Source of the DNA: a virus
Length of the DNA: 44,698 nucleotides
IMG/VR virus record: IMGVR_UViG_3300037424_000686
Coordinates: 1 to 44,698 of that record
Direction: 5' to 3' (one strand)
Part shown: positions 7,742 to 42,288 of the stretch, one piece after another
Layout of the letters: every line of letters starts with the position of its first letter
Position numbering within the stretch: position 1 is the first letter of the stretch
The notes under the pieces: model-generated
Databases searched by the model: none
What the model saw: the letters and a program-made list of their open reading frames with translations, nothing else
Told to the model about the DNA's origin: nothing
Made by a program: the position numbers and the translations under genes

Positions 7742-9703
7742 ATGACGACACTCAGCATCGACTTCGAAACGCGCTCGGCGCTCGACCTGAAGAAGGTCGG
7801 CGCGTACCGGTACGCGGAGCACGCGTCCACGGACGTGTGGTGCATGGCGTGGGCGCTTGACGACGTGGAGCCCGCGATCTGGGCGCGCGGCGCGCCGTGC
7901 CCGCCCGAGATCGTGGCCGCGATCGCGGCCGGGGGCGAGATGCGCGCGTTCAACGCGCAGTTCGAGCGCCTGATCTGGAACGCGATCATGGCCCCGCGGT
8001 ACGGGTTCCCGGCGCTCCCGCTCGCCGCGTGGCACGACACCGCCGCGGACGCCGCCGCGATGTCCCTGCCCCGCTCGCTCGGTGAGTGCGCCGCGGTTCT
8101 CGGCGTGGTGCAACAGAAGGACGAGGCCGGGAGCGCGCTCGCGATCCGTATGAGTAAGCCTCGCTCCACGAAGGGCGGCGAAGTGATCTGGTGGGACGTG
8201 CCGGAGCGGCTCGCGCTGCTGTACGAGTACTGCAAGCAGGACGTCCGCACCGAGCGCGCGATCTACAAAGCGACGCGACGCCTCTCCCCGAGCGAGCGGT
8301 GCATCTACCTGCTCGACCAGCGGATCAACGATCGCGGTGTCGCGCTCGATCTGGGCCTGATCCGCTCCGCGCGCAAGATCGTCGATGTCGGGCTCGAGCG
8401 CGTGAACGCGGACGTGCACGCGTTGACCGATGGCGCGGTCCCGAACGTGGTCACGAAGCCCGCGGACCTGAAGATGTGGCTCGCGACCCATCAGATCGAG
8501 ATCGACAGTGTCCGGAAGTCGGTCGTACGGGACCTGCTCGCTGGCGAGCACCCCGCTCCGGTACGGCTCGTGCTGGAGTCCCGTGCCGAGGCCGGCCGAT
8601 CGAGCGTCGCTAAATTGAAGAAGATGCAGGAAATGGTGTGCGCCGACGGCCGCGTGCGTGGGACACTGTTCTACCACGCCGCGGGCACGGGCCGGTGGGG
8701 TGGGAAGGGCATCCAACCTCAGAACTTCACGCGTCCGATCGTCAAGAACCCCGAGCGGTACGTCGAGATCGTCCGCACCGGGGACCACGAGCTGCTCGAC
8801 GCGTTCGAGGCCCCCCTGCCCCTGATCGCGTCCCTGCTCCGGGGGATGCTGATCGCGGCGCCCGAGCATCGGCTCCTGGTCGGGGACTTCGCGCAGATCG
8901 AGGCCCGCGTGCTCGCGTGGCTCGCGGGCGAGGAGTGGCTCGTGCGCGCGTTCCGGAACAAGGAGCCGATCTACGAGCGGATGGCGGCCCTGATTCACCA
9001 GGTCCCGGTCGAAACGATCGCGAAGGACAGCGACGAGCGGCAGCTCGGGAAGAACACCGAGCTGGGGTGTGGGTACGGGATGGGCGCCGAGACGTTCGCG
9101 CGCCAGGCCTGGGAGCGGGACGGCGTCAAGGTTCCGATCGAGCTCGCGAAGCGCGCGGTGAAGGCCTACCGTGAAAGTCACCGGCAGATCGTCGCATTCT
9201 GGAGGGAGCTCGACGACGCATGCCTGCTCGCGGTCAAATACCCGGGGCGCGTGAGCGAGGTCTCAACCCCGACCATCTCGGTACGGTTCGTGGTGCGCGG
9301 CGCATACCTGTACCTGGTCCTGCCCTCCGGTCGTCCGCTTACGTTCGCGAAGCCGCGCATCCGACCGCGCGAGACGCCGTGGGGCCTGGTCCGGAACGCG
9401 GTGGTCGTGGAGGGCGTGGACAGTCAGACCCATCGCTGGCACGCGTATGCGCTGTACGGTGGCATCTTGACCGAGAATGTGGTGCAGGCCTTCGCACGCG
9501 ATCTGCTCGCGCACGCGATGCTGCGCCTCGACACGTCCGGGTACCCGGTCGTACTGACCGTGCACGACGAGATCGTGAGCGAAGTTCCTCACGGGGTACA
9601 CCTGCGGCACTTTACGCAGATCATGCGCGAGCAGCCAACGTGGGCCGATGGGTGCCCGATCGACGTCGACTCCTGGGAGGGAGATCGCTATGGGAAGAAG
9701 TAG
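7742..9703 (+). CDS. family-A DNA polymerase with 3'-5' exonuclease domain
   Basis: Exo I is LSIDFETRS. Motif A is VGDFAQIEARVLAWLAG, motif B is RQLGKNTELGCGYGMG and motif C is LTVHDEIVSEV. ATG 7742 is chosen over the 7703 start in the ORF track. Confidence 0.9.
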   Translation: MTTLSIDFETRSALDLKKVGAYRYAEHASTDVWCMAWALDDVEPAIWARGAPCPPEIVAAIAAGGEMRAFNAQFERLIWNAIMAPRYGFPALPLAAWHDTAADAAAMSLPRSLGECAAVLGVVQQKDEAGSALAIRMSKPRSTKGGEVIWWDVPERLALLYEYCKQDVRTERAIYKATRRLSPSERCIYLLDQRINDRGVALDLGLIRSARKIVDVGLERVNADVHALTDGAVPNVVTKPADLKMWLATHQIEIDSVRKSVVRDLLAGEHPAPVRLVLESRAEAGRSSVAKLKKMQEMVCADGRVRGTLFYHAAGTGRWGGKGIQPQNFTRPIVKNPERYVEIVRTGDHELLDAFEAPLPLIASLLRGMLIAAPEHRLLVGDFAQIEARVLAWLAGEEWLVRAFRNKEPIYERMAALIHQVPVETIAKDSDERQLGKNTELGCGYGMGAETFARQAWERDGVKVPIELAKRAVKAYRESHRQIVAFWRELDDACLLAVKYPGRVSEVSTPTISVRFVVRGAYLYLVLPSGRPLTFAKPRIRPRETPWGLVRNAVVVEGVDSQTHRWHAYALYGGILTENVVQAFARDLLAHAMLRLDTSGYPVVLTVHDEIVSEVPHGVHLRHFTQIMREQPTWADGCPIDVDSWEGDRYGKK

Positions 9704-12100
9704 ATGACCAACCAACCGCAGATCGTGCGCCTGTTCGAGGCCGGGTTCCGGCCGCTCGTGTGCGTGATCCCGCCCCGCGCGCCGCTCGCGCCCACGAGCC
9801 GTATTCCGCCCGGCAAGCTCGGCAAGACACCGGGCGTGCCCCTCGGGAATGGCACCTGGGTCGGGTACCACTGGCTCAAGTACGTCCCGAACGACGCGGA
9901 CATCCGCCGCTGGGCGCAGGCCGGCGCGAGCGTCGGTATCCTCGCCGCCGGCTACCCGGCGCTCGACATCGACTCGATGGACCCCGTGCTCGCGAGCGAG
10001 ATCGAGCAGCTCGCGCTCGACATCCTGGGCCCCGCGCCGGTCCGGTTCGGGCAGCGCCCGAAGCGGCTCCTGATGTACCGGACCGGAGAACCGTTCGCGC
10101 GCATTACGTTGTTCATCACGCGCGACGGCGTCGAGCGCCGGATCGAGTTCCTGGGCGCCGGCAACCAGTACCTGGTCGACGGCGAGCACCCGAGCGGCGC
10201 GCGGTACGAGTGGTTTACGGCGAGCGACGCGCCGACGGACCTCACCAGTTACGGCGAGAAGGACTTTACGTGGATCACGCGCGCCAACGTCGAGGCCTTC
10301 TTCGAGCAGCTGATTGACCTGTACGGGGAAGCGAACTGCCGGCTGGTCGGGGATGGGAAGGTGCGCGAGCGGGACGCGACCCCGCAGGCCGATCTGCTCG
10401 CACCCTCCCTGGACGCGCTCCGCGCGGTCGTGGACACAATCCCGAACACGGACGAGGTCGTGCCCACCCGCGACGAGTACGTGCGGGTCGGGCTCGCGAT
10501 CCGGGCCGCCGGCGGCGAGGATGCGTACGAGCTGTTCGCGTCCTGGTGCGCGCGGCACCCGAAGGATCAGCGCGTGTCCGGGAACCCCGAGACCTGGCGC
10601 GAGGATTGGGGCCGCTTCCACCCCCCGTACACGCTCGGGTGGGGCTGGCTGTGTGACTTCGCGGCCCCGTTCGGGTTCGCTCGCGCGACCTGGGAGTTCG
10701 CGGCCGAGGACGCGCCCGCCGCGCCGGCCGCGGTTGAGGACGAGCGCGCGCCCGAGTTCTCGGAGCTGTGGCTCGCGGACTACGTGATCTCGCAGGTCGG
10801 GGACCTGCTCCGGTACGCGCCCGAGCAGGGTGCGTGGTACGTGTGGTCCCGGGGCCGGTGGGCGCGGGACGCGATGCTGCTCGCCGATTACCACGTGGGC
10901 GAGGTCCTGAAGCGGCTCGCGGTCGCGTGCCTGCGGCGTGGGGCCACGGACGCGGAGCGGAAGCGCCTCACGGGCCTCGCGGAGAAGCTGTGCTCGATCG
11001 ACAAGCTCCGGAACGTGCGTCAGCTGCTGCGACATGATCCGCGGATCGCGGTCCCGATCACCGCGTTCGACGCGAACCCGTGGCTGCTCTCGACCCCGGC
11101 CGGGATCGTCGACCTCCGCACCGGCGAGCTGCGGCCCCCGGACCCGAACGCGATGTGCTCGCGGATCACGACCGTCGCGCCCGAGTTTGCGACGCCGAGC
11201 CCGATCTGGGATAAGTTTCTGAACGACAGCACCGCGGGCGATATTGAGCTGCAGCTGTACCTGCAGCGCCTGCTCGGGTACGGGCTGACCGGGCTCACGG
11301 ACGAGGACGCGCTCGCGTTCGTGTGGGGCGAGGGCCAGAACGGGAAGTCCACGTTCCTCGAGGTCGTGACGCGCATCTTCGGGGACTACCACGAGCGGGC
11401 CGCGATGGAAACGTTCCTCGCGACGACGTACGACCGGCACCCGACCGAGCTGGCGAAGCTCGCCGGCGCGCGGCTCGTCACCGCCGCGGAGACCCAGGAG
11501 GGGCGCCGCTGGGACGAGCAGCGCGTCAAGGAGTTGACCGGCGGTGATGAAGTGACGGCGCGCTTCATGCGCGAGAACTTCTTCAACTTCTGGCCCAAGT
11601 TCCTGCTCCTATTTTACGGAAACCACCGGCCCGAAATCCGGAACCTGGACGAGGCGATGCGGCGCCGCTTCCACCTTGTGCCGTTCGTGCATCGCGTCCC
11701 GGACGAACTGAAGGACCTCCATCTCGCCGGGAAGCTCAAGGCCGAGTACCCCGCGATCCTCGCGTGGATGATCCGCGGCTGTATCGAGTGGCAGCGGCGC
11801 GAGCTCGCGCCCCCGAGCTCGGTGCAGCTCGCGACCGCGGAGTACTTCGCGGACGAGGACCCCGTGGGGCGCTGGATCGAGGAACGGTGCGAGACGCGGA
11901 GCGAGATGGCGGCCACGATGGTGGACCTGTTCCGCTCCTGGGAGCAGTGGACGAACGCGAACGGAGAGTACACCGGCTCCGCGAAGCGGCTCTCGCTCGT
12001 GCTCGCCGCGAAACGCTTTGGGCGCTGGCGCGAGCCGGGCACAGGCCGGCGCGGGTTCACGGGACTAAAACCGCGGAACGAACTGGAGGAAGTGATATGA
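9704..12100 (+). CDS. bifunctional primase-polymerase / D5-P4-type helicase
   Basis: The N-terminal prim-pol has LDIDSMDP (DxD) and GEHPSGARYEW. This is followed by a PriCT-like segment, a D5_N-like segment (LRYAPEQGAWYVWSRGRW), and a P-loop GEGQNGKSTFLEV. Confidence 0.85.
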   Translation: MTNQPQIVRLFEAGFRPLVCVIPPRAPLAPTSRIPPGKLGKTPGVPLGNGTWVGYHWLKYVPNDADIRRWAQAGASVGILAAGYPALDIDSMDPVLASEIEQLALDILGPAPVRFGQRPKRLLMYRTGEPFARITLFITRDGVERRIEFLGAGNQYLVDGEHPSGARYEWFTASDAPTDLTSYGEKDFTWITRANVEAFFEQLIDLYGEANCRLVGDGKVRERDATPQADLLAPSLDALRAVVDTIPNTDEVVPTRDEYVRVGLAIRAAGGEDAYELFASWCARHPKDQRVSGNPETWREDWGRFHPPYTLGWGWLCDFAAPFGFARATWEFAAEDAPAAPAAVEDERAPEFSELWLADYVISQVGDLLRYAPEQGAWYVWSRGRWARDAMLLADYHVGEVLKRLAVACLRRGATDAERKRLTGLAEKLCSIDKLRNVRQLLRHDPRIAVPITAFDANPWLLSTPAGIVDLRTGELRPPDPNAMCSRITTVAPEFATPSPIWDKFLNDSTAGDIELQLYLQRLLGYGLTGLTDEDALAFVWGEGQNGKSTFLEVVTRIFGDYHERAAMETFLATTYDRHPTELAKLAGARLVTAAETQEGRRWDEQRVKELTGGDEVTARFMRENFFNFWPKFLLLFYGNHRPEIRNLDEAMRRRFHLVPFVHRVPDELKDLHLAGKLKAEYPAILAWMIRGCIEWQRRELAPPSSVQLATAEYFADEDPVGRWIEERCETRSEMAATMVDLFRSWEQWTNANGEYTGSAKRLSLVLAAKRFGRWREPGTGRRGFTGLKPRNELEEVI

Positions 12101-34454: not shown

Positions 34455-36635
34455 TCACTCCCGTTCCGGCGTCGCGGGTTCGGCCTCGGCCGCGACCTCC
34501 GCGGCGTCTACCTTGGCGTTCGCGTCGAGCAGCGCGCGCTCGCGCTTCACCTCGGCGTCGAGCTGTGCGCGGTCGAGCGAATTCTTGTACTTCATCTCGA
34601 GCTCGTGCTTCTTGAGCACAACGTCCGCGGCCTGCTTGTCGCGCTCGCGATCGTCCGCGAGCATCATCTTCTCGCGCTCGAGCGCGAGCTTCGCCTTCTC
34701 GTTCTCGATCGTCGCCTGCACGCGCTGGGCCTCGATCTGGACCTTTGCCATCTCGGCCTGCGCGAGCGCCTGGGTCGCGGGGTCCTGCGGGGGAGGCTGC
34801 TGCGCGGCCTGCTGCGCGAGCTTCTTCTCCTCATCCTCCGAGAGCGGCTTGAAGAACTCGTCCGCGTTCGGATAGCCGAGCAGCTCGACCGCGCGCGCGA
34901 GCGCGTTCCGATACTGCGTCAACGACACGAGCGGGTTCTGGGGGCCGAGCTGCTGCAGCACCGCCTCCTGCTTCTCGATGATCGCGGCGAGCAGCCGTGC
35001 CTTCTCGTCCGCGAGGCCGGCGCCGAGCGCGATGTTGACGATCACGTCCGCGTCCGCCTCCCAGCCGCTCGGATCAATTTCGACGTACTGCCCGCGGAGC
35101 CGCACGGTGCGCGAGCGGTCCTGGTGCTCGACCACGGTCCGCAGCAGCCCCTTGTACATTTCCCGGACCCCGGTCTCCGCGAAGATGCGGGCCAGCAGCT
35201 CGGTCCGCTCCTGCGCTTTCGAGAGGGTCGCGGCGACCGCGGCCTTCGTCGAGCTCTGGAGCGCGTCCGCGTCGAGCCCGGCCGCGGCCTTCGACTGCCC
35301 GAGCCGGTTCTCCTTCATCTCGGCGAGGATTTCGTACGCGGGCAGAATGTCGCCGCCCACGAACCGGTGCGCGATCTCCCGGATCATGCCCGGCGCGCGG
35401 GTCCGGATCACGGCCCCGATCTCGGTGTTCATGAGGTCCTGGAGATTCACCATCCCGTCCACCGCTTCGGTGCGGGGGATCAGCGCGAGCGAGAGAGAGT
35501 CTAACATCCCGCGCGAAATCGCGCTGTTCATCTCCTGGAAGTCCATCGTGTCGTCCGCGTACGAGAGCCCCCCGATCGCGTGCGCCTCGGGGTCACAGAT
35601 CAGGTACGCGATGGGTCGGTGCGAGACGACCTTCTTCGCGAGCATCTTATGCTGGTCGCCGGCGGTGCAGACCTTGAACAGCTTCACCTTGCCGTCGCTC
35701 GGGTCCTCGAGGTACACGAACGCTTCATCGTACCGGACCGGCTCAGTCAGGTCGTCCTGGACCTCGTCCCCGATCTTGTTCGCGCCCTCATCGATCCGTC
35801 GCGCATCGTCCTCGCGCGCGCCCTGGTGGTAGCTCGAGGCACCGATGCACTCCTCGAAGTCCTCGTACTCGTAGCCCATCGCGAGCAGCTCGTCGACCCG
35901 CGCCTCCCGGGTGTGCACCACGATCCGGGCACTCTTCCCGAAGTTGCGCGCGTTCCGGTCCCAGAGGATTTCCTCGGACGGGACACACTCGATCCGGAGC
36001 CGCCCCTTCGTGGTGGTCCTGGTCACGGTCGCGTCGAACGTCTCGGGGACGTGCTTCGCGGGATCGGGCGGGACCGTGTCCGTGATCTCAAGCTCGACGT
36101 CGTCCTCGGCGAGGAGCTCCATGATGTTCTCCTCGGTGAGACCGGTGTACTCGGTGCTCTCGGTCTCCTCGGACTCGTCCCACCACCACTTCACGAAGCC
36201 GATCTTCTGCACGAGCGCGTCCTTGAACCACCCGTGGAAGATACGGAACCCTGAGTTGTCCTCGATGATGCAGTAGTTGATGTAGTCGGTTTTTTGGCGG
36301 GCGATGGCCTCGTCCTCTTTGCCGCGCGGGCCGAACTCGACGTACCGCTCGGGCCCGGTGAAGATGCGGAGCAGGGACGGCATCACCGAGCGTACCGCGT
36401 CCCGGACGTCGGTCGTCACGATCTGCGAGCGGCCCTCCTCCTCGTTCCCGAAGGGGCGGGCGTAGTAGTAATCGATCGCCTTCTCGCGCTCGGGCGCGAC
36501 CTCGCTCTCGATGTAGCTCTGTGCGTCGTCGATCATGGTGCGAACGAGCGCCTCGACCTGTTCATCGGAGCGCTTCTCGCTCCGGCGGGCGGCGCGGTTC
36601 GGCTTCTCGGCGGGGGTAGCGGTATCGTACGCCAT
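34455..36635 (-). CDS. portal protein (P22-like)
   Basis: 726 aa. KAIDYYYARPFGNEEEGRSQIVTTDVRDAVRSVMPSLLRIF and a long helical Ala/Glu/Gln-rich C-terminal barrel-like tail. Confidence 0.85.
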   Translation of the reverse strand: MAYDTATPAEKPNRAARRSEKRSDEQVEALVRTMIDDAQSYIESEVAPEREKAIDYYYARPFGNEEEGRSQIVTTDVRDAVRSVMPSLLRIFTGPERYVEFGPRGKEDEAIARQKTDYINYCIIEDNSGFRIFHGWFKDALVQKIGFVKWWWDESEETESTEYTGLTEENIMELLAEDDVELEITDTVPPDPAKHVPETFDATVTRTTTKGRLRIECVPSEEILWDRNARNFGKSARIVVHTREARVDELLAMGYEYEDFEECIGASSYHQGAREDDARRIDEGANKIGDEVQDDLTEPVRYDEAFVYLEDPSDGKVKLFKVCTAGDQHKMLAKKVVSHRPIAYLICDPEAHAIGGLSYADDTMDFQEMNSAISRGMLDSLSLALIPRTEAVDGMVNLQDLMNTEIGAVIRTRAPGMIREIAHRFVGGDILPAYEILAEMKENRLGQSKAAAGLDADALQSSTKAAVAATLSKAQERTELLARIFAETGVREMYKGLLRTVVEHQDRSRTVRLRGQYVEIDPSGWEADADVIVNIALGAGLADEKARLLAAIIEKQEAVLQQLGPQNPLVSLTQYRNALARAVELLGYPNADEFFKPLSEDEEKKLAQQAAQQPPPQDPATQALAQAEMAKVQIEAQRVQATIENEKAKLALEREKMMLADDRERDKQAADVVLKKHELEMKYKNSLDRAQLDAEVKRERALLDANAKVDAAEVAAEAEPATPERE

Positions 36636-37447: not shown

Positions 37448-37635
37448 CGGTCCTCGCTGCGTTTGAAGGACACGTACATCCAGACCTTAAACGGTCCGAT
37501 GTGCACGCGAATCGAGGGGGCCATCAGACACGGCCAATACCGCAGGCTGCATCCGAAGGCAATCTGATAGGGATACCAGGTCAACCCCCCACCCGCCCAT
37601 CGCGTATGCCAGTCCCAATCCCGTGCTCGGCTCAT
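37444..37635 (-). CDS. small Trp-rich protein (63 aa)
   Basis: ATG 37635 lies 1 nt after the TerL stop. Sequence MSRARDWDWHTRWAGGGLTWYPYQIAF... Confidence 0.45.
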   Translation of the reverse strand: MSRARDWDWHTRWAGGGLTWYPYQIAFGCSLRYWPCLMAPSIRVHIGPFKVWMYVSFKRSEDR

Positions 37636-37636
37636 G

Positions 37637-39145
37637 TTACACAACCCCTTTCACCCCGCGCTTGAGTGGTGTGCTCCACGCGACGTGCGCGAAGCCCATC
37701 GCGATCGTGGCGCCACCCGCGAACGTCAGCAGGAACGCGTCGAGCCGATCCGGCGATCGGCGCGGGTGGATGTACTTCATCATGTCCGCCTTCGGGAGCG
37801 CGAGCACGAGCCCGCTCGAGAGGAGCGCTTTGTACTTCTGCGCCGCGGCCTCCTGCTCGAACTTCGGATCGTGCGGGATCGCGCAGTCCCGCGCGTAGAA
37901 CCAGTCGCGGGCCGCGAAGCAGAGCTCGGTGCGAACGTTCTTGTACCGCTCGCTGTTCAGCGCGGGCGTCTCGGACACGTTGATCGCGATCGCGGGGAGC
38001 CCAAGCTCGATCAGCCGATCGGCGGTCCCCTTCCCGATCCCGATCGCGTCCACGTAGATCGCGACCGGACGATCGAGCGGCGGGCACAGGTCCCACTCGG
38101 CCTTGATGACCCCCACGAGCAGCATCGAGTCCCGGAGCCCGGCCCAGGTCTTGATCGGCTCGGTGAGCACGTTCGCTTTCCGCTTCGCGAGCGTCGCGAG
38201 GTCGTGCGAGAGCCCCGGGTCGACGCCCCACACGACGGGCGCGGTCGGGGACGGTTGCACGTTCCGCCCGCGCGCGGCCTCGATCAGCTCGAGCGGGATG
38301 ATGACATCCGCCTCGCTCCGGGGCGGGCGGCCCAGGACGCGGACCCGGTACACGTTGCTGTCCTCGCCGTACTCCTCCGCGATCATGATCCCGAGCTTCG
38401 GGTCGACCCGCTCCGAGATGTAGGTCCCCTGCCCATCGGGCTCGATCGTCCCGCAATGCTCGCCGGCGTGCGCGGTCACGTGCACTCGATACCAGCTGCT
38501 CGCGCCCTCGCCGTGATTCGCGTTGTAGAAGAAGCCGCTCGTGCGGTACGGGTTCCCGGCGAGGATCGTGCACGCGTTGTGCTGCGACATCGAACCGAGC
38601 CCGGCCTCGAAGATGGTGCCCGGCACGCCGTCCGCCTCGTCCGCGATCAGGAGCACGAAGCCCGGGTCGCAGTGAATGCCCTGCAGCGCCTCCGGGGTCT
38701 CGGGGCGCGCGGTCCGGAACGTTGCGAAGCTCTCGATCGGGGACGCGAGCAGCTCGATCCGGTCGCTCTTGACGTTGTACAGCACACGGATCGCGGGCGG
38801 CAGGCGCTGCATCCACTTCTTGACCTCGGCGAGGAGCGCGTCCTCCATCTGCCCCGAGGTCGGGGCGGTCGCGGCCACCTTCTGCGGGTAGCGGGTCGTG
38901 AGCTGGATCACCACGAGCCACGCGATCCCGCACGTTTTCCCGGGCCCGTGACAGCTCTCGATGGCGATCTGCCGTACCCCACGCCCGTATGCGCGCAGCA
39001 TCGCGAGCTGGAATGGGTCCGGGGTCGCCCCGAGCACCTCGCGCACGAACCGCTCCGGTCCGTACTCGCCGGCCTGAGGGCCGTACGCCTCGAGCCAAGC
39101 CTCGAACACGGCCCGAGGGCCCGCGATCGGTATGGCGCTCACCAC
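37637..39145 (-). CDS. terL: terminase large subunit
   Basis: Walker A is ESCHGPGKT and Walker B is FVLLIADEADGV, with a C-terminal nuclease-type domain. 502 aa. GTG start overlaps the upstream stop. Confidence 0.9.
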   Translation of the reverse strand: MVSAIPIAGPRAVFEAWLEAYGPQAGEYGPERFVREVLGATPDPFQLAMLRAYGRGVRQIAIESCHGPGKTCGIAWLVVIQLTTRYPQKVAATAPTSGQMEDALLAEVKKWMQRLPPAIRVLYNVKSDRIELLASPIESFATFRTARPETPEALQGIHCDPGFVLLIADEADGVPGTIFEAGLGSMSQHNACTILAGNPYRTSGFFYNANHGEGASSWYRVHVTAHAGEHCGTIEPDGQGTYISERVDPKLGIMIAEEYGEDSNVYRVRVLGRPPRSEADVIIPLELIEAARGRNVQPSPTAPVVWGVDPGLSHDLATLAKRKANVLTEPIKTWAGLRDSMLLVGVIKAEWDLCPPLDRPVAIYVDAIGIGKGTADRLIELGLPAIAINVSETPALNSERYKNVRTELCFAARDWFYARDCAIPHDPKFEQEAAAQKYKALLSSGLVLALPKADMMKYIHPRRSPDRLDAFLLTFAGGATIAMGFAHVAWSTPLKRGVKGVV

Positions 39146-40212
39146 GACCTCCGCTGTACGTACACGACCCGGCGCGCGCGGCCGAGACCGACGTATAATG
39201 CCGGCACCTCGAGCTCGAAGGCGCTGATCCGGACCCGGCGCGGTTCGGGCACGTCCGGGGTCTCGATCTCGATCGCGCTCACGCGCACCCGCCGCGGCGA
39301 GCCTGGGACCTCCATCTCGACCGCGCTGATCCGGACCCGACGCGGCGCGTTCGGCACCTCGATCTCGACCGCGGACACCCTCGCCCGGCGCGGGGCGTTC
39401 GGGACCTCGAACTCGAACGCACTGATCCGGACACGCTTGTCTGCCACGGCGTCCGGGACCTCGAACTCGACTGCGCTCACGCGCACGCGGCGCGGGGAAG
39501 TTGGGACCTCGATCTCCACCGCGCTCACGCGCACGCGGCGCGGGGCGTTCGGCACCTCAAGCTCGAACGCGCTGATCCGGCCCTGGCGATCGGTCGGGGT
39601 CGAGCTGATCTCGAACCATGGGTTCAGCGTGGTGCCGGTCTGGGTATCGTTCTCGGCCAGATCACCGCCCGCGCCGTCGGACCCCCAGCGCATCGACGCA
39701 TTGTGGCCCTGCGTGCCGCCGCCGCCGCCGGGCGTTCCCTGGCAGCTGAACTCCACCACCAGTCGATCTCCTGAGACCGTGGTGTACGCGCTCGCGACCG
39801 TGGTGCTGAGGAACACGCTCCGAAGCGCGGTGTTGAACTCCGCGGCGATGACCTTCGCCCTAAGCGTCTGCCGGAGCGTCGCGCCGTCGTTGCTGTAGAC
39901 ACCAACCCAAATTTGCAGTGTCTGGTTGTTGGCCGCGCTCGGCTCCAGGCCCTGCACGCAGCACTTGATGACATTGCCCACGTCGAACACCGTGCCCGTC
40001 GTGAGCGCGTCGGAGACGAACTGCACGTGGAACGAGTCGCCCGCGGCGGCGTGATCGGCGGCGTCGGGCGTGACCGCCTGGGTCGCGAGCGCAGTTGCGT
40101 CCGAGGTTGGGAGCGGCCGGCGTGTGGACGCCAGGGTGTGCGTGTACGACTGCAGCGCAGGGCTAACAGCTGCGCTACCGCTCGCCGGCAACCGGAACCA
40201 CAGGTCCGCCAT
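39139..40212 (-). CDS. beta-rich protein with eight C-terminal 16-18-aa tandem repeats
   Basis: 357-aa ORF whose ATG directly follows the upstream TAA. Residues ~210-338 are repeats of RVRVSAVEIEVPxxPR. Confidence 0.7.
   Translation of the reverse strand: MADLWFRLPASGSAAVSPALQSYTHTLASTRRPLPTSDATALATQAVTPDAADHAAAGDSFHVQFVSDALTTGTVFDVGNVIKCCVQGLEPSAANNQTLQIWVGVYSNDGATLRQTLRAKVIAAEFNTALRSVFLSTTVASAYTTVSGDRLVVEFSCQGTPGGGGGTQGHNASMRWGSDGAGGDLAENDTQTGTTLNPWFEISSTPTDRQGRISAFELEVPNAPRRVRVSAVEIEVPTSPRRVRVSAVEFEVPDAVADKRVRISAFEFEVPNAPRRARVSAVEIEVPNAPRRVRISAVEMEVPGSPRRVRVSAIEIETPDVPEPRRVRISAFELEVPALYVGLGRARRVVYVQRRSW
39199..39585 (-). repeat. coding tandem repeat, 8 units of 48-54 bp
   Basis: The peptide units are: GRISAFELEVPNAPR; RVRVSAVEIEVPTSPR; RVRVSAVEFEVPDAVADK; RVRISAFEFEVPNAPR; RARVSAVEIEVPNAPR; RVRISAVEMEVPGSPR; RVRVSAIEIETPDVPEPR; RVRISAFELEVP. 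The DNA units are diverged rather than identical. Confidence 0.9.
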
Positions 40213-40671
40213 TTAGGGCTGGTTCGCGACGAACCTCACCTGCAGGTCGGCGTAGTCCGTGATCGCGTCCGCCTCCGCGCCCGACAACGTATCGGTCGTG
40301 GTCGTGAACGCGTCCGGAATGGTCGTGTCCGAGAAGCTGTTAATCAGCGACCCGGGCGTCCCCTCATTGATGTACCCCTGTCGGAGCTGGACCGTGAGGT
40401 CGATCGTGGCCCCGCCCGCGCTGTTCTTGCCGCGCCGCCAGCGCATCACGTGCCCGCTCGAGGAGACCGGGTCCTCGACGTTCGACAGTCCGAACGCGCA
40501 CGCCTCGTTCACCGGGGCGAGCGGGGACTCGGCGTAGTCGGTGTCGTCCCCGGCGCCGATCGATCCGGGCATGTCGGGCGCGATCGAACTGAAGATGTTG
40601 ACGCCCGAGCCGGCCTGGTTCAGCCAGCTGCCGTCGACGATGTCGGCGTCAGGAACTGCGTACTGTGCCAT
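40213..40671 (-). CDS. hypothetical beta-rich protein
   Basis: 152-aa ORF with GC-rich third positions. The ending TLSGAEADAITDYADLQVRFVA recalls a recurrent small phage protein family that I cannot name. Confidence 0.6.
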   Translation of the reverse strand: MAQYAVPDADIVDGSWLNQAGSGVNIFSSIAPDMPGSIGAGDDTDYAESPLAPVNEACAFGLSNVEDPVSSSGHVMRWRRGKNSAGGATIDLTVQLRQGYINEGTPGSLINSFSDTTIPDAFTTTTDTLSGAEADAITDYADLQVRFVANQP

Positions 40672-40948: not shown

Positions 40949-41110
40949 TTTCCGTTACCTCCCCGGGGCCGTGGGGCCCCTAAAACCGGGACTCCGGTTC
41001 AGGCACACCAACGTCAGCCACAGCCGAGGCCGGCCGCCGGGGGCCCCTTCGGGGGGCCTTCGGGTTCCGGGGTCGGGGCGGCCGGGGCTGGCAGCTTAAC
41101 ATAATGTCCA

Positions 41111-41767
41111 TTATACGCACCGCACGACGCTAAGTCGTTGCGACGCAACGAGTTGCACGCACTGTGCGCCCGTTACAATCGGGGTCTGCGTGGTCGGCAG
41201 CTCGGAAGCCGAGGCAGGAGCATGCCAAAGTGGCAGATCAGCCTGCCATTCTGGCTTGCGCGCACGGGTTCGATCACTCGGTCGCACGCTCTCACGCTCC
41301 ACATCGGCCGGATGCCAGGGCAATTGACGCATCTGCCGGTCGGCACCTACCAGCATGAACGCACAGCTCACACCTGATCCCACCGACACGAACAGCACCG
41401 GCGGGAAGGTCGGGTTCAGCATCTTCTCCTCATCGAGGCGTGAGGCATAACAGTGCTCCTGCTTGGTGTGCTGTGCATCGAGATAGATGTGGTTGTGCCA
41501 GATCGCGCGCGTCGCACCAGGACAGAGCCCCCAATTCACCGCGACCGCGTCCGCGCTCGCGTCGCTCTCGATCCACGGCGCTTCGGCGATGCCGTCGAAG
41601 CGCAGCGTATCCCCGTACCAGGTCGCGAGCACGCAGCGCGCGTGCTCCACCGTCGCGGTGTCCGCGATCTGCTCGAGGTACGCGCGCACGCGCACATCAA
41701 ACTCGAGCTGGGACTGCGCCGACGCGGCGCTCGCCCACATCAACAGCGCGATCCACGCGTACCTCAT
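41111..41767 (-). CDS. secreted protein, unknown function (atypical codon usage)
   Basis: The ATG overlaps the TerS stop (ATGA). It has a signal-peptide-like N-terminus MRYAWIALLMWASAASAQ. Third-position GC is lower than in its neighbours. Contains WHNH...ASRLD. Confidence 0.65.
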   Translation of the reverse strand: MRYAWIALLMWASAASAQSQLEFDVRVRAYLEQIADTATVEHARCVLATWYGDTLRFDGIAEAPWIESDASADAVAVNWGLCPGATRAIWHNHIYLDAQHTKQEHCYASRLDEEKMLNPTFPPVLFVSVGSGVSCAFMLVGADRQMRQLPWHPADVERESVRPSDRTRARKPEWQADLPLWHAPASASELPTTQTPIVTGAQCVQLVASQRLSVVRCV

Positions 41768-42288
41768 AGCAAATCCTCCAGCTTTGGGGGTGAGAGCAGC
41801 TCAGGCTGCGCGGGTAGGGATTCGACGACTGTCTCGGCGGGGAGCGCGGCCGCGCCACCCTTCGCCTTGAGGGCGTCGAGGTGCAACGTTCCAATGTTGA
41901 TCTGCACGCCACCGGTCTTCGGCGGGGCGTACTCCTCGCTCAACGTGCCGGCCAGCCAGCGCCGCGTATCGGCGCGCAGCTTCGCGCCAGCCACGATCGC
42001 GCTCTCGGTCTCACCCTCGGTCTCGTCCACGATGTCGACCGCCTCGTCCACGAGCGCGTGCGGCGTCTCCTCGCGGCGGACCCGGTAGAAGGCCTCGAGC
42101 CACTCGGGCTTCAGCTTCAGGTACTTGCGGATCAGCTGGCGGGACACACCCTCGGGCTTGACGTCCGTGAACTGCTTCCCGACCCAACTGAGGGTCTTAC
42201 CCTCGGCGACCCAATCGAGGATGACCTCGACCCCGCCGCGGGCCGCGACGCGCTCCTGGAGTAGGGCGAAGATGGGCATACCAGGCAT
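41764..42288 (-). CDS. terS: terminase small subunit
   Basis: An N-terminal HTH-like segment (KTLSWVGKQFTDVKPEGVSRQLIRKYL) is followed by AGAKLRADTRRWLAGTLSEEYAPPK, the ARLR.DTRKW...K..P..Y signature I associate with TerS proteins. It is the first gene of the late arm. Confidence 0.65.
   Translation of the reverse strand: MPGMPIFALLQERVAARGGVEVILDWVAEGKTLSWVGKQFTDVKPEGVSRQLIRKYLKLKPEWLEAFYRVRREETPHALVDEAVDIVDETEGETESAIVAGAKLRADTRRWLAGTLSEEYAPPKTGGVQINIGTLHLDALKAKGGAAALPAETVVESLPAQPELLSPPKLEDLL

Follow-up and report, generated by a model that had tools for sequence, protein, structure and literature searches.

A two-gene module with a 16-residue tandem repeat in the packaging and head block of uncultured tailed phages

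Introduction

Tail fibers are known to come in pairs with a cognate chaperone or adhesin, such as gp37 with gp38 in T4 and Stf with Tfa in lambda. Fibers of the adenovirus type are composed of a hydrophobic 15-residue repeat, and the length of their shaft varies between types by the number of repeats (PMC7248032). Decoration proteins of the Hoc type display their domains at the N-terminus and bind to the capsid with their C-terminal part (PMC5292684). In this study, we analyzed a stretch of viral DNA, positions 1 to 44,698 of the IMG/VR record IMGVR_UViG_3300037424_000686 (44,698 nucleotides, hereafter the window), in which two adjacent genes lie between the terminase genes terS and terL. The first encodes a protein of 152 amino acids (aa), here termed A, the second a protein of 357 aa that consists of an N-terminal domain (B), eight tandem units of 16–18 aa and a short C-terminal tail. 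With moderate, evenly balanced confidence we suggest that both genes together encode a two-component modular appendage of the virion, either a fiber or a capsid decoration, with an adhesin role.

Results

Linkage of protein A and the repeat array

Co-occurrence and gene context were counted in 80 IMG/VR loci, with open reading frames (ORFs) taken from a simple caller. Where A homologs shared at least 40% identity and at least 4 kb of downstream sequence was available, 43 of 54 loci contained the repeat downstream of A, on its strand and at a distance of at most 3 kb. Given at least 4 kb of upstream sequence, it was found upstream in none of 42 such loci, and A stood upstream of the repeat gene in all 43 linked loci. 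With A below 40% identity and the same minimum of downstream sequence, none of nine loci contained the window-type repeat. B accompanies the repeat in only two of the A-linked loci, while the remaining ones encode either other heads or repeat-only proteins of 100–250 aa; in the repeat-only loci, one to three variable beta-rich genes are located between A and the repeat gene. Conversely, B proteins without the repeat of the window (L002, L114, L115) had no A nearby, even if searched by hidden Markov model at E <= 1, and B-plus-repeat proteins with A nearby are those of the window, L001, L037 and L116. Furthermore, an A-like domain is fused directly to the array in P0064, P0069, P0201 and P0221. 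The loci of P0064 and P0069 retain a standalone A upstream, and P0032 shows the architecture B-X-A.

Taken together, the co-occurrence, its converse and the fusions argue strongly, on comparative grounds, for a joint function of A and the array. Judged from sequence comparison, A and the repeat array form the conserved pair. The first-pass annotation, a reading of the window made from its letters alone, had treated both genes as parallel beta-rich genes. This view had to be given up, since the conserved unit comprises A and the array, whereas the 205-aa N-terminal domain is swappable. From the same comparison, A and the array are probably in physical contact.

Protein A is strongly acidic (isoelectric point, pI, 4.05). 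AlphaFold2 modeled it as a compact all-beta sandwich with a predicted local distance difference test score (pLDDT) of 91. Foldseek comparison against the PDB gave weak matches to the Fbs1 sugar-binding domain, to CBM15, CBM16 and CBM4 and to a gingipain adhesin domain, with template-modeling scores of ~0.46 and no E-value below 1e-3. At least 590 clusters of A homologs were obtained (clustering at 90% identity), with lengths of 146–156 aa and identities of 50–80%, and 167 relatives were found in IMG/VR. Contigs binned with Nitrosotenuis, Caldarchaeum, Thermoplasmatota, Halobacteria, Methanomassiliicoccales, Chloroflexota, Planctomycetota and Patescibacteria encode distant relatives (L092–L113), and in the isolate Ferruginivarius sediminum WD2A32 an A-domain protein is encoded in a prophage-like region (L094). 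In some distant members (L076, L078, L083, L094), the A domain forms the N- or C-terminus of proteins of 400–1,400 aa.

An electrostatic pairing of an acidic A with a basic array was considered as a general rule and rejected: the A proteins are acidic throughout the family (median net charge -13), while the arrays range from -37 to +12. In the window itself the pairing holds (pI 4.05 vs. 9.9). The last strand of A (DLQVRFVANQP; 40213–40250, minus strand) resembles the first half of the repeat unit (RVRVSAV), and in the fusions of an A-like domain (A') with the repeat, the last A strand is followed by a short Gly linker and then by the first unit. This likeness could hint at docking by strand exchange or at the origin of the repeat. 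In two loci, a gene for an HNH-type endonuclease (CxxC...HNH...CxxC; ~135 aa, cluster c13) was found between A and the repeat gene (L001, 7574–7990; L041, 1978–2382). The insertion in two unrelated phages suggests homing-endonuclease traffic inside the cassette. Small genes of 93–110 aa, considered as a possible third conserved component, flank the cassette in other lineages; their clusters c7, c12, c22, c41 and c44 are dissimilar by eye.

Searches for known families did not assign either protein. Neither A nor the 357-aa protein matched Pfam-A or PHROGs v4 above noise, and no match was obtained for them in PDB sequences searched with profiles. Ig and fn3 domains were not detected in either protein by Pfam, and for 25 distant members of the A family PHROGs delivered single noise matches only, none of which was consistent. 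PADLOC, which covers only systems known in 2023, gave no match to known defense or anti-defense components at E <= 0.1 for either protein. The repeat strings were found in none of the papers covered by a full-text search, and the paper on the SU10 structure describes no comparable protein. Thus A and the repeat are two families common in uncultured tailed phages that lack an annotation in Pfam, PHROGs or PDB, and the first impression of an unrecognized repeat was correct for all resources named here.

The repeat array and its family

In the window, Tandem Repeats Finder detected a period of 48 nt with 7.7 copies at 39201–39580, and parsing resolved eight units with spacings of 16, 16, 18, 16, 16, 16 and 18 aa. 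The architecture first read from the translation, an N-terminal domain of ~205 aa followed by eight 16–18-aa units, was thereby recovered, with the extent of the array as given in Table 1. The units follow the pattern R-V-R-[VI]-S-A-[VFI]-E-[IFLM]-E-[VT]-P-x-x-P-R, with the core [RQ]-x-R-[VI]-S-A-[VFI]-E-[IFLM]-E-[VT]-P. Among the 12-aa cores, identity amounts to 75% at the protein and 76% at the DNA level, and identical residues share an identical codon in only 62% of the comparisons. Such low codon sharing marks the array as old and as preserved by selection for its peptide pattern, as had been proposed before from its diverged DNA units. The strict alternation of polar and hydrophobic residues that had been proposed as well does not hold. 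Instead, the hydrophobic residues of RVRVSAVEIEV occupy positions 2, 4, 6 and then 7, 9, 11, which shifts the register at S-A-V. A straight strand would give two half-hydrophobic, half-charged faces, and we infer that a bulge or kink might divide each unit into two short strands. AlphaFold2, run with a 20-sequence alignment, placed one long strand in each unit at a pLDDT of only 45–54, and this part of the model is not relied on. The C-terminal tail begins with alternating hydrophobic and Gly residues, continues Arg-rich and is a candidate anchoring peptide; tails of this kind are found repeatedly among family members (LLGVG, LLGAGR, GIGIGMRS, RRNRRS, RLAKRFR).

For the family as a whole, aa 206–342 were compared with 1.84 billion representative proteins, clustered at 50% identity. 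The repeat was detected in 309 clusters at E <= 1e-3 and in 213 at E <= 1e-10. Arrays contain 3–32 units. Of 351 intervals between units, 284 measure exactly 16 aa. Across the family, the consensus reads RRARVSWAELEVPNAP (R-R-A-R-V-S-W-A-E-L-E-V-P-N-A-P). Its invariant residues are polar (E9 98%, E11 94%, P13 97%, S6 83%), while the Arg and hydrophobic positions vary. Most arrays end 17–25 residues before the C-terminus, and the tails are often of the hydrophobic-Gly-hydrophobic-Gly type or Arg-rich. The N-terminal domains that precede the repeat are numerous and unrelated (P0014, P0078 and many others), and in some long proteins arrays flank other domains (P0200, P0201, P0252). One match was discarded: P0279, an AHNAK-like eukaryotic protein of 7,526 aa, matched the repeat at 8.8e-26 through its periodic composition and not through homology.

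Several observations were made beside the family itself. P0252 (1,945 aa) contains a related yet distinct unit, V-[ST]-A-L-E-[AC]-D-[IV]-T-Y, with a period of ~13–15 aa, and its arrays flank a large central region without repeats on both sides and also lie within it. In L038, a Gly_rich_2 protein (8499–9344) ends with ...SLLLLGIG, and the next gene (9348–10112), which encodes a repeat-only protein of 12 units, begins with MSLLLLLRNAG. Similar hydrophobic-Gly tails (LLGVG, LLVQGFNF, ITLMGAGCK) are also present at the C-termini of several proteins whose genes lie between A and the repeat gene, and of many B-family proteins. Such shared tails may represent a docking or strand-exchange peptide.

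A beta-solenoid or an amyloid-like surface had been suggested in the first-pass annotation, and one might ask if the array forms a self-propagating cross-beta structure of the functional amyloid type, or a beta-solenoid surface, with A as nucleator or cap. We regard this as very improbable. Such a structure would be in line with units that are short and consist mainly of one or two strands, with the conserved polar ladders (S, E, E, R), with the open-ended unit number and with the long strand modeled in every unit. However, confidence in that model is low, and 16 residues are too few for one full coil of a solenoid. Known functional amyloids are built from Q/N/G-rich units, from which the Pro-x-x-Pro turns and charged ladders differ; the units described here are rich in R, E, V and P. 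In addition, there is neither an evident secretion signal (as read by eye) nor a curli- or Fap-type export partner among the neighboring genes. The hallmarks of curli CsgA and Fap (Sec signal, export and nucleator genes, Q/N/G-rich repeats) were not found.

The N-terminal domain B

AlphaFold2, based on the same 20-sequence alignment, modeled aa 1–205 of the 357-aa protein as a jelly-roll beta-sandwich with a pLDDT of ~90. Together with the sandwich modeled for A, this agrees with the earlier description of both proteins as beta-rich. Comparison of B with the PDB by Foldseek gave weak matches to the C-domain of cocaine esterase (CocE), to TNF/C1q-like ligands and to viral jelly rolls (best E 6.6e-4). 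Against the predicted viral structures of BFVD, the best match is an uncharacterized protein of an uncultured phage (E 1.6e-11), followed by domains in long proteins of uncultured phages annotated with collagen triple-helix repeats, S74 intramolecular-chaperone or C1q domains (E 1e-7 to 1e-5). The BFVD matches beyond the first are fiber-like proteins.

The 357-aa protein has 78 metagenomic homologs that share the N-terminal domain or the repeat, most of which share only the first ~200 residues. B homologs are 55–83% identical up to the motif NPWFE and diverge completely afterwards; P0002, for example, is 83% identical up to this motif and unrelated beyond it. Some homologs stop after the domain (~222–235 aa). 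In others, B is followed by the same repeat (P0003, P0005, P0010, P0011, P0019), by one of at least four other periodic repeats (P0002, P0009, P0013, P0017, P0055) or by a Laminin_G_3 lectin domain (P0044). Comparison of these sequences identifies B as one of many swappable heads. A homology between A and B was also considered, as pairwise BLAST gave a hint at E 0.004, and dismissed after profile-profile comparison did not confirm it (hhalign probability 0.16).

Genomic context across relatives

Landmark genes were recognized with a limited query set in 38 of the 80 loci; loci without a landmark are uninformative and not negative. In all but one of the 38 loci the landmarks are on the strand of the cassette, and the cassette lies inside the packaging/head block in every case. 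The most frequent order is terL>portal>A>repeat>MCP (major capsid protein; 10 loci). The order of the window, A>repeat>terL>portal, was also found in L005 and L012–14, and further orders are terL>A>repeat>portal and portal>MCP>A>repeat. The backbones are unrelated to each other: terminases belong to Terminase_6N, gpA and Terminase_6C, portals are SU10-like, P22-like or DUF4055, and the coats are of SU10- and P22-type. Domains found near or fused to proteins of the cassette are fn3, Pentaxin, Gly_rich_2 and Laminin_G_3, among them fn3 only in a neighboring protein of L004.

These data shed light on two expectations of the first-pass annotation. First, terS and terL were taken to be normally adjacent, which is a poor baseline for this lineage. 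In the SU10-type locus L005, whose terL is 46% identical to that of the window, ~12 genes are located between both terminase genes, the last two of which encode A and an A'-repeat protein. Separated terminase genes are thus normal in this group. Second, a coupling of the 357-aa gene to terL was proposed. The overlap of stop and start is indeed present in the window. A functional link is not supported, because the cassette occupies four different slots among the relatives, so that the coupling to terL is local and positional. Synteny in relatives and database searches had been recommended as a check, and both found the genes with conserved placement in many relatives. Consequently, the cassette is not a one-off moron.

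The same context bears on an explanation by which the cassette would serve head assembly or packaging, at the portal, at the terminase or inside the capsid, with the repeats as scaffold or cement and the Arg-rich tail in contact with DNA or with an acidic inner capsid surface. We consider this decidedly unlikely, while the consistent placement within terS-terL-portal-MCP (most commonly terL>portal>A>repeat>MCP), the translational coupling to terL in the window and the Arg-rich C-terminal tails of many family members would be in line with it. Yet the module occurs with at least three unrelated types of terminase, portal and coat, and thus cannot depend on lineage-specific contacts with these proteins. 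A tenfold range of repeat numbers is unfit for a lattice-matched cement or scaffold, and separate scaffold candidates are present. Furthermore, an outward orientation is suggested by the hypervariable heads and by the fusion to domains of lectin type (Laminin_G_3, Pentaxin).

Another scenario is a late-expressed accessory cassette, i.e., a moron in the broad sense, whose products are not part of the virion and act in the infected cell or after lysis. They could for example bind glycans or debris of the host envelope to limit unproductive re-adsorption, or act on the host surface from within. This scenario is rather unlikely in our opinion. The cassette is absent from Sinorhizobium phage phiM5, the nearest cultured relative by terL (42% identity), and its position varies among backbones that are otherwise alike, a behavior typical of mobile accessory genes. 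HNH endonuclease genes are found inside the cassette of L001 and L041, and the inter-terminase region of the window contains another foreign-looking gene, which encodes a secreted protein of 218 aa (GC content at third codon positions, GC3, 0.77). The GC3 of the cassette, however, equals that of core genes (A 0.92, 357-aa gene 0.88; terL, portal and MCP 0.92), and the cassette is located in the structural late operon, never among early genes. The modularity of head, shaft and tail and the variable repeat number are hallmarks of structural fibers, and there is no PADLOC match. In addition, no evident N-terminal signal sequence or transmembrane segment was seen in A or in the 357-aa protein, based on translations read by eye with no predictor run. 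Without a signal sequence, both proteins would leave the cell only as part of the particle or upon lysis.

Layout of the locus

The record has a GC content of 67.9% and an overlap of its ends of 30 bp; IMG/VR lists the ends as direct terminal repeats and the completeness as 100%. The late operon on the minus strand is of podovirus type and comprises terS (Sf6-like), terL, a small HExxH protein, an SU10-type portal (Pfam, 1.3e-175), a scaffold, the MCP, an adaptor and tail genes, while DNA polymerase, primase and exonuclease are encoded on the plus strand. phiM5 is a LUZ24-like podovirus with the same order of terL, peptidase, portal, scaffold and MCP. Thus the virus is a complete 44.7-kb podophage and kin of phiM5 and LUZ24.

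Table 1. Positions of the cassette and of neighboring features in the window.
Feature	Position	Strand	Basis and remarks
terS	41764–42288	-	Pfam Sf6_terminase 1.9e-8, phrog_1482; upstream boundary of the inter-terminase region
GC-rich, hairpin-dense spacer	40949–41110	-	Sequence reading
A, 152 aa	40213–40671	-	ORF
357-aa head-repeat-tail protein	39139–40212	-	ORF
N-terminal B domain, aa 1–205	39598–40212	-	AlphaFold2, homologs
Eight tandem 16–18-aa units, aa 210–341	39190–39585	-	Tandem Repeats Finder, unit parsing
C-terminal tail GLGRARRVVYVQRRSW, aa 342–357	39142–39189	-	Sequence; preceding ALYV closes unit 8
terL	37637–39145	-	phrog_2 2.4e-32; 46% identical to L005 terL; downstream neighbor
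portal	34455–36635	- (late operon)	Profile matches

The gap between terS and terL (2,618 nt) contains four ORFs of 218, 99, 152 and 357 aa. The initial reading of four ORFs in ~2.6 kb, two beta-rich genes among them, is confirmed by ORF calls, with terS and terL assigned by Pfam and PHROGs, while the 99-aa ORF is unsupported. The stop of the 357-aa gene overlaps the GTG start of terL (GTGGTGA), as described initially, and a GGAGG Shine-Dalgarno motif is located just upstream. Judged from this arrangement, the 357-aa gene and terL are translationally coupled in the window. At the other end of the 357-aa gene, the TAA of A is directly followed, in frame, by its ATG (CCC TAA ATG GCG, 40210–40215). 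Read-through of the A stop would yield an A-B-repeat fusion of 510 aa, comparable to the A'-repeat fusions found in nature. Of 12 adjacent gene pairs examined in relatives, 8 are in frame, against one third expected, a count that is biased by the ORF caller.

The 218-aa gene (41111–41767, minus strand) between terS and the cassette encodes a signal-peptide-like N-terminus. Its GC3 is lower than the 0.87–0.92 of its neighbors, which is consistent with a more recent acquisition. The spacer next to it contains several perfect short hairpins, e.g., GGCCCCCCGAAGGGGCCCCC, and immediately precedes the 99-aa ORF, which is followed by A, the 357-aa gene and terL. By its sequence, the spacer may be a terminator, attenuator or processing site in the late operon, or a boundary of transcription units. 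A 754-aa ORF on the plus strand (37634–39898) spans the region and was rejected as an artifact of high GC content, since all homology lies in frames of the minus strand.

Discussion

The first-pass annotation had left open if the repeat protein is a packaging accessory, a capsid or tail decoration or a host-directed factor. Among these, the evidence favors a decoration of capsid or tail. The 357-aa protein would then be a fiber: its N-terminal jelly-roll head B likely binds glycans or other surfaces, the eight 16-residue units would build a beta-structured shaft, longer or shorter according to the number of repeats, and the short Gly/Arg-rich tail at the C-terminus likely serves as anchor. A would be the cognate partner of the array, either as an attached lectin-like subunit or adaptor or as a repeat-specific assembly (folding) chaperone. 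This scheme would require incorporation into the virion, formation of a trimeric or otherwise fibrous shaft, anchoring through the C-terminus, binding of a ligand by the head and contact between A and the repeat. We prefer a fiber or decoration because of the variable heads, the periodic shaft of variable length, the short tail, the lectin-type fused or neighboring domains, the lack of an evident secretion signal, the placement in the late operon and the core-like codon usage. Since the cassette belongs to the head gene region and several lineages carry it between portal and MCP, an appendage close to the capsid or portal is somewhat likelier than a tail fiber.

Several points weigh against a virion appendage. 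A six-frame tblastn search of 50,697 GenBank phage records found neither protein, so that there is no cultured carrier among them. The fold matches to solved structures are weak (best E 6.6e-4 for B, none below 1e-3 for A). Confidence of AlphaFold2 over the repeats is low (45–54), and a model of a monomer cannot show a fiber. A globular domain at the N-terminus and a conserved part at the C-terminus are the reverse of most tail fibers. Adhesin genes are not usually found next to terminase and portal, a position that could indicate a role in packaging or head assembly. Finally, phiM5 lacks the cassette and is viable, which makes the cassette accessory.

One might speculate further that the 16-residue unit is a new fibrous or docking motif, and that one A would attach by strand augmentation to each RxRVSxAExEVP unit or to the N-terminal end of the array. 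A ladder of 3–32 lectin-like A proteins plus an exchangeable head would then act as a polyvalent display scaffold, common to tailed viruses of bacteria and archaea and without a solved or annotated counterpart. We consider this extension unlikely.

The module is found in hundreds of uncultured phages and has been undescribed so far. Its recognition as one module of partner, repeat shaft and swappable heads would annotate hundreds of 'hypothetical' genes in head and packaging regions. In addition, it would flag a likely host- or environment-binding appendage that is missed by current predictors of receptor-binding proteins, because it is encoded outside the tail module and has a reversed polarity. 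The repeat itself may be a new fibrous beta fold, and a unit of 16 residues with 3–32 natural copies suits structural work and the engineering of display scaffolds.

How does the module compare to known systems? The pairs of T4 gp37/gp38 and lambda Stf/Tfa are similar in that a fibrous repeat protein is strictly linked to a small partner gene and the receptor-binding end is exchanged in a modular way. However, the partner gene is here located upstream, the pair belongs to the head/packaging and not to the tail module, and there is no sequence similarity. Carbohydrate-binding and TNF/C1q-like jelly rolls share the beta-sandwich topology with the proteins described here, while the matches are weak, lack sequence similarity and identify no ligand site.

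Adhesins of the Hoc and pb10 type (PMC5292684) resemble the module in other aspects. They are accessory, dispensable-looking and encoded together with head genes, they expose variable beta domains at the N-terminus, and the presumed C-terminal anchor of the 357-aa protein corresponds to that of Hoc. A weak binding of carbohydrates is the role proposed for them as well, and the lack of the cassette in phiM5 is compatible with dispensability. In contrast to the tandem Ig-like domains of Hoc-type adhesins, the module consists of jelly rolls with a long tandem-repeat shaft and is encoded by two genes.

The trimeric beta-spiral fibers, namely adenovirus fiber (van Raaij 1999, cited in PMC7248032), reovirus sigma1 and PRD1 P5, resemble the proposed fiber in that they combine a beta-sandwich head with a shaft of ~15–16-residue hydrophobic/polar repeats and Pro-containing turns, a length set by the repeat number and a short terminal tail for anchoring. 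Adenovirus fiber carries its virion-anchoring tail at the N-terminus and its knob at the C-terminus, whereas in the 357-aa protein the head is N-terminal (aa 1–205) and repeats and tail are C-terminal. Furthermore, the hydrophobic residues here follow the order 2,4,6|7,9,11 with an invariant S..E.E.P and not the adenovirus consensus, searches found no solved chain that is similar in sequence or profile, and the obligate partner A has no counterpart among these fibers. Measured against a triple beta-spiral shaft, the residue pattern differs and AlphaFold2 is unconfident, while the 16-aa unit (284 of 351 intervals) and the Pro conserved at 97% fit.

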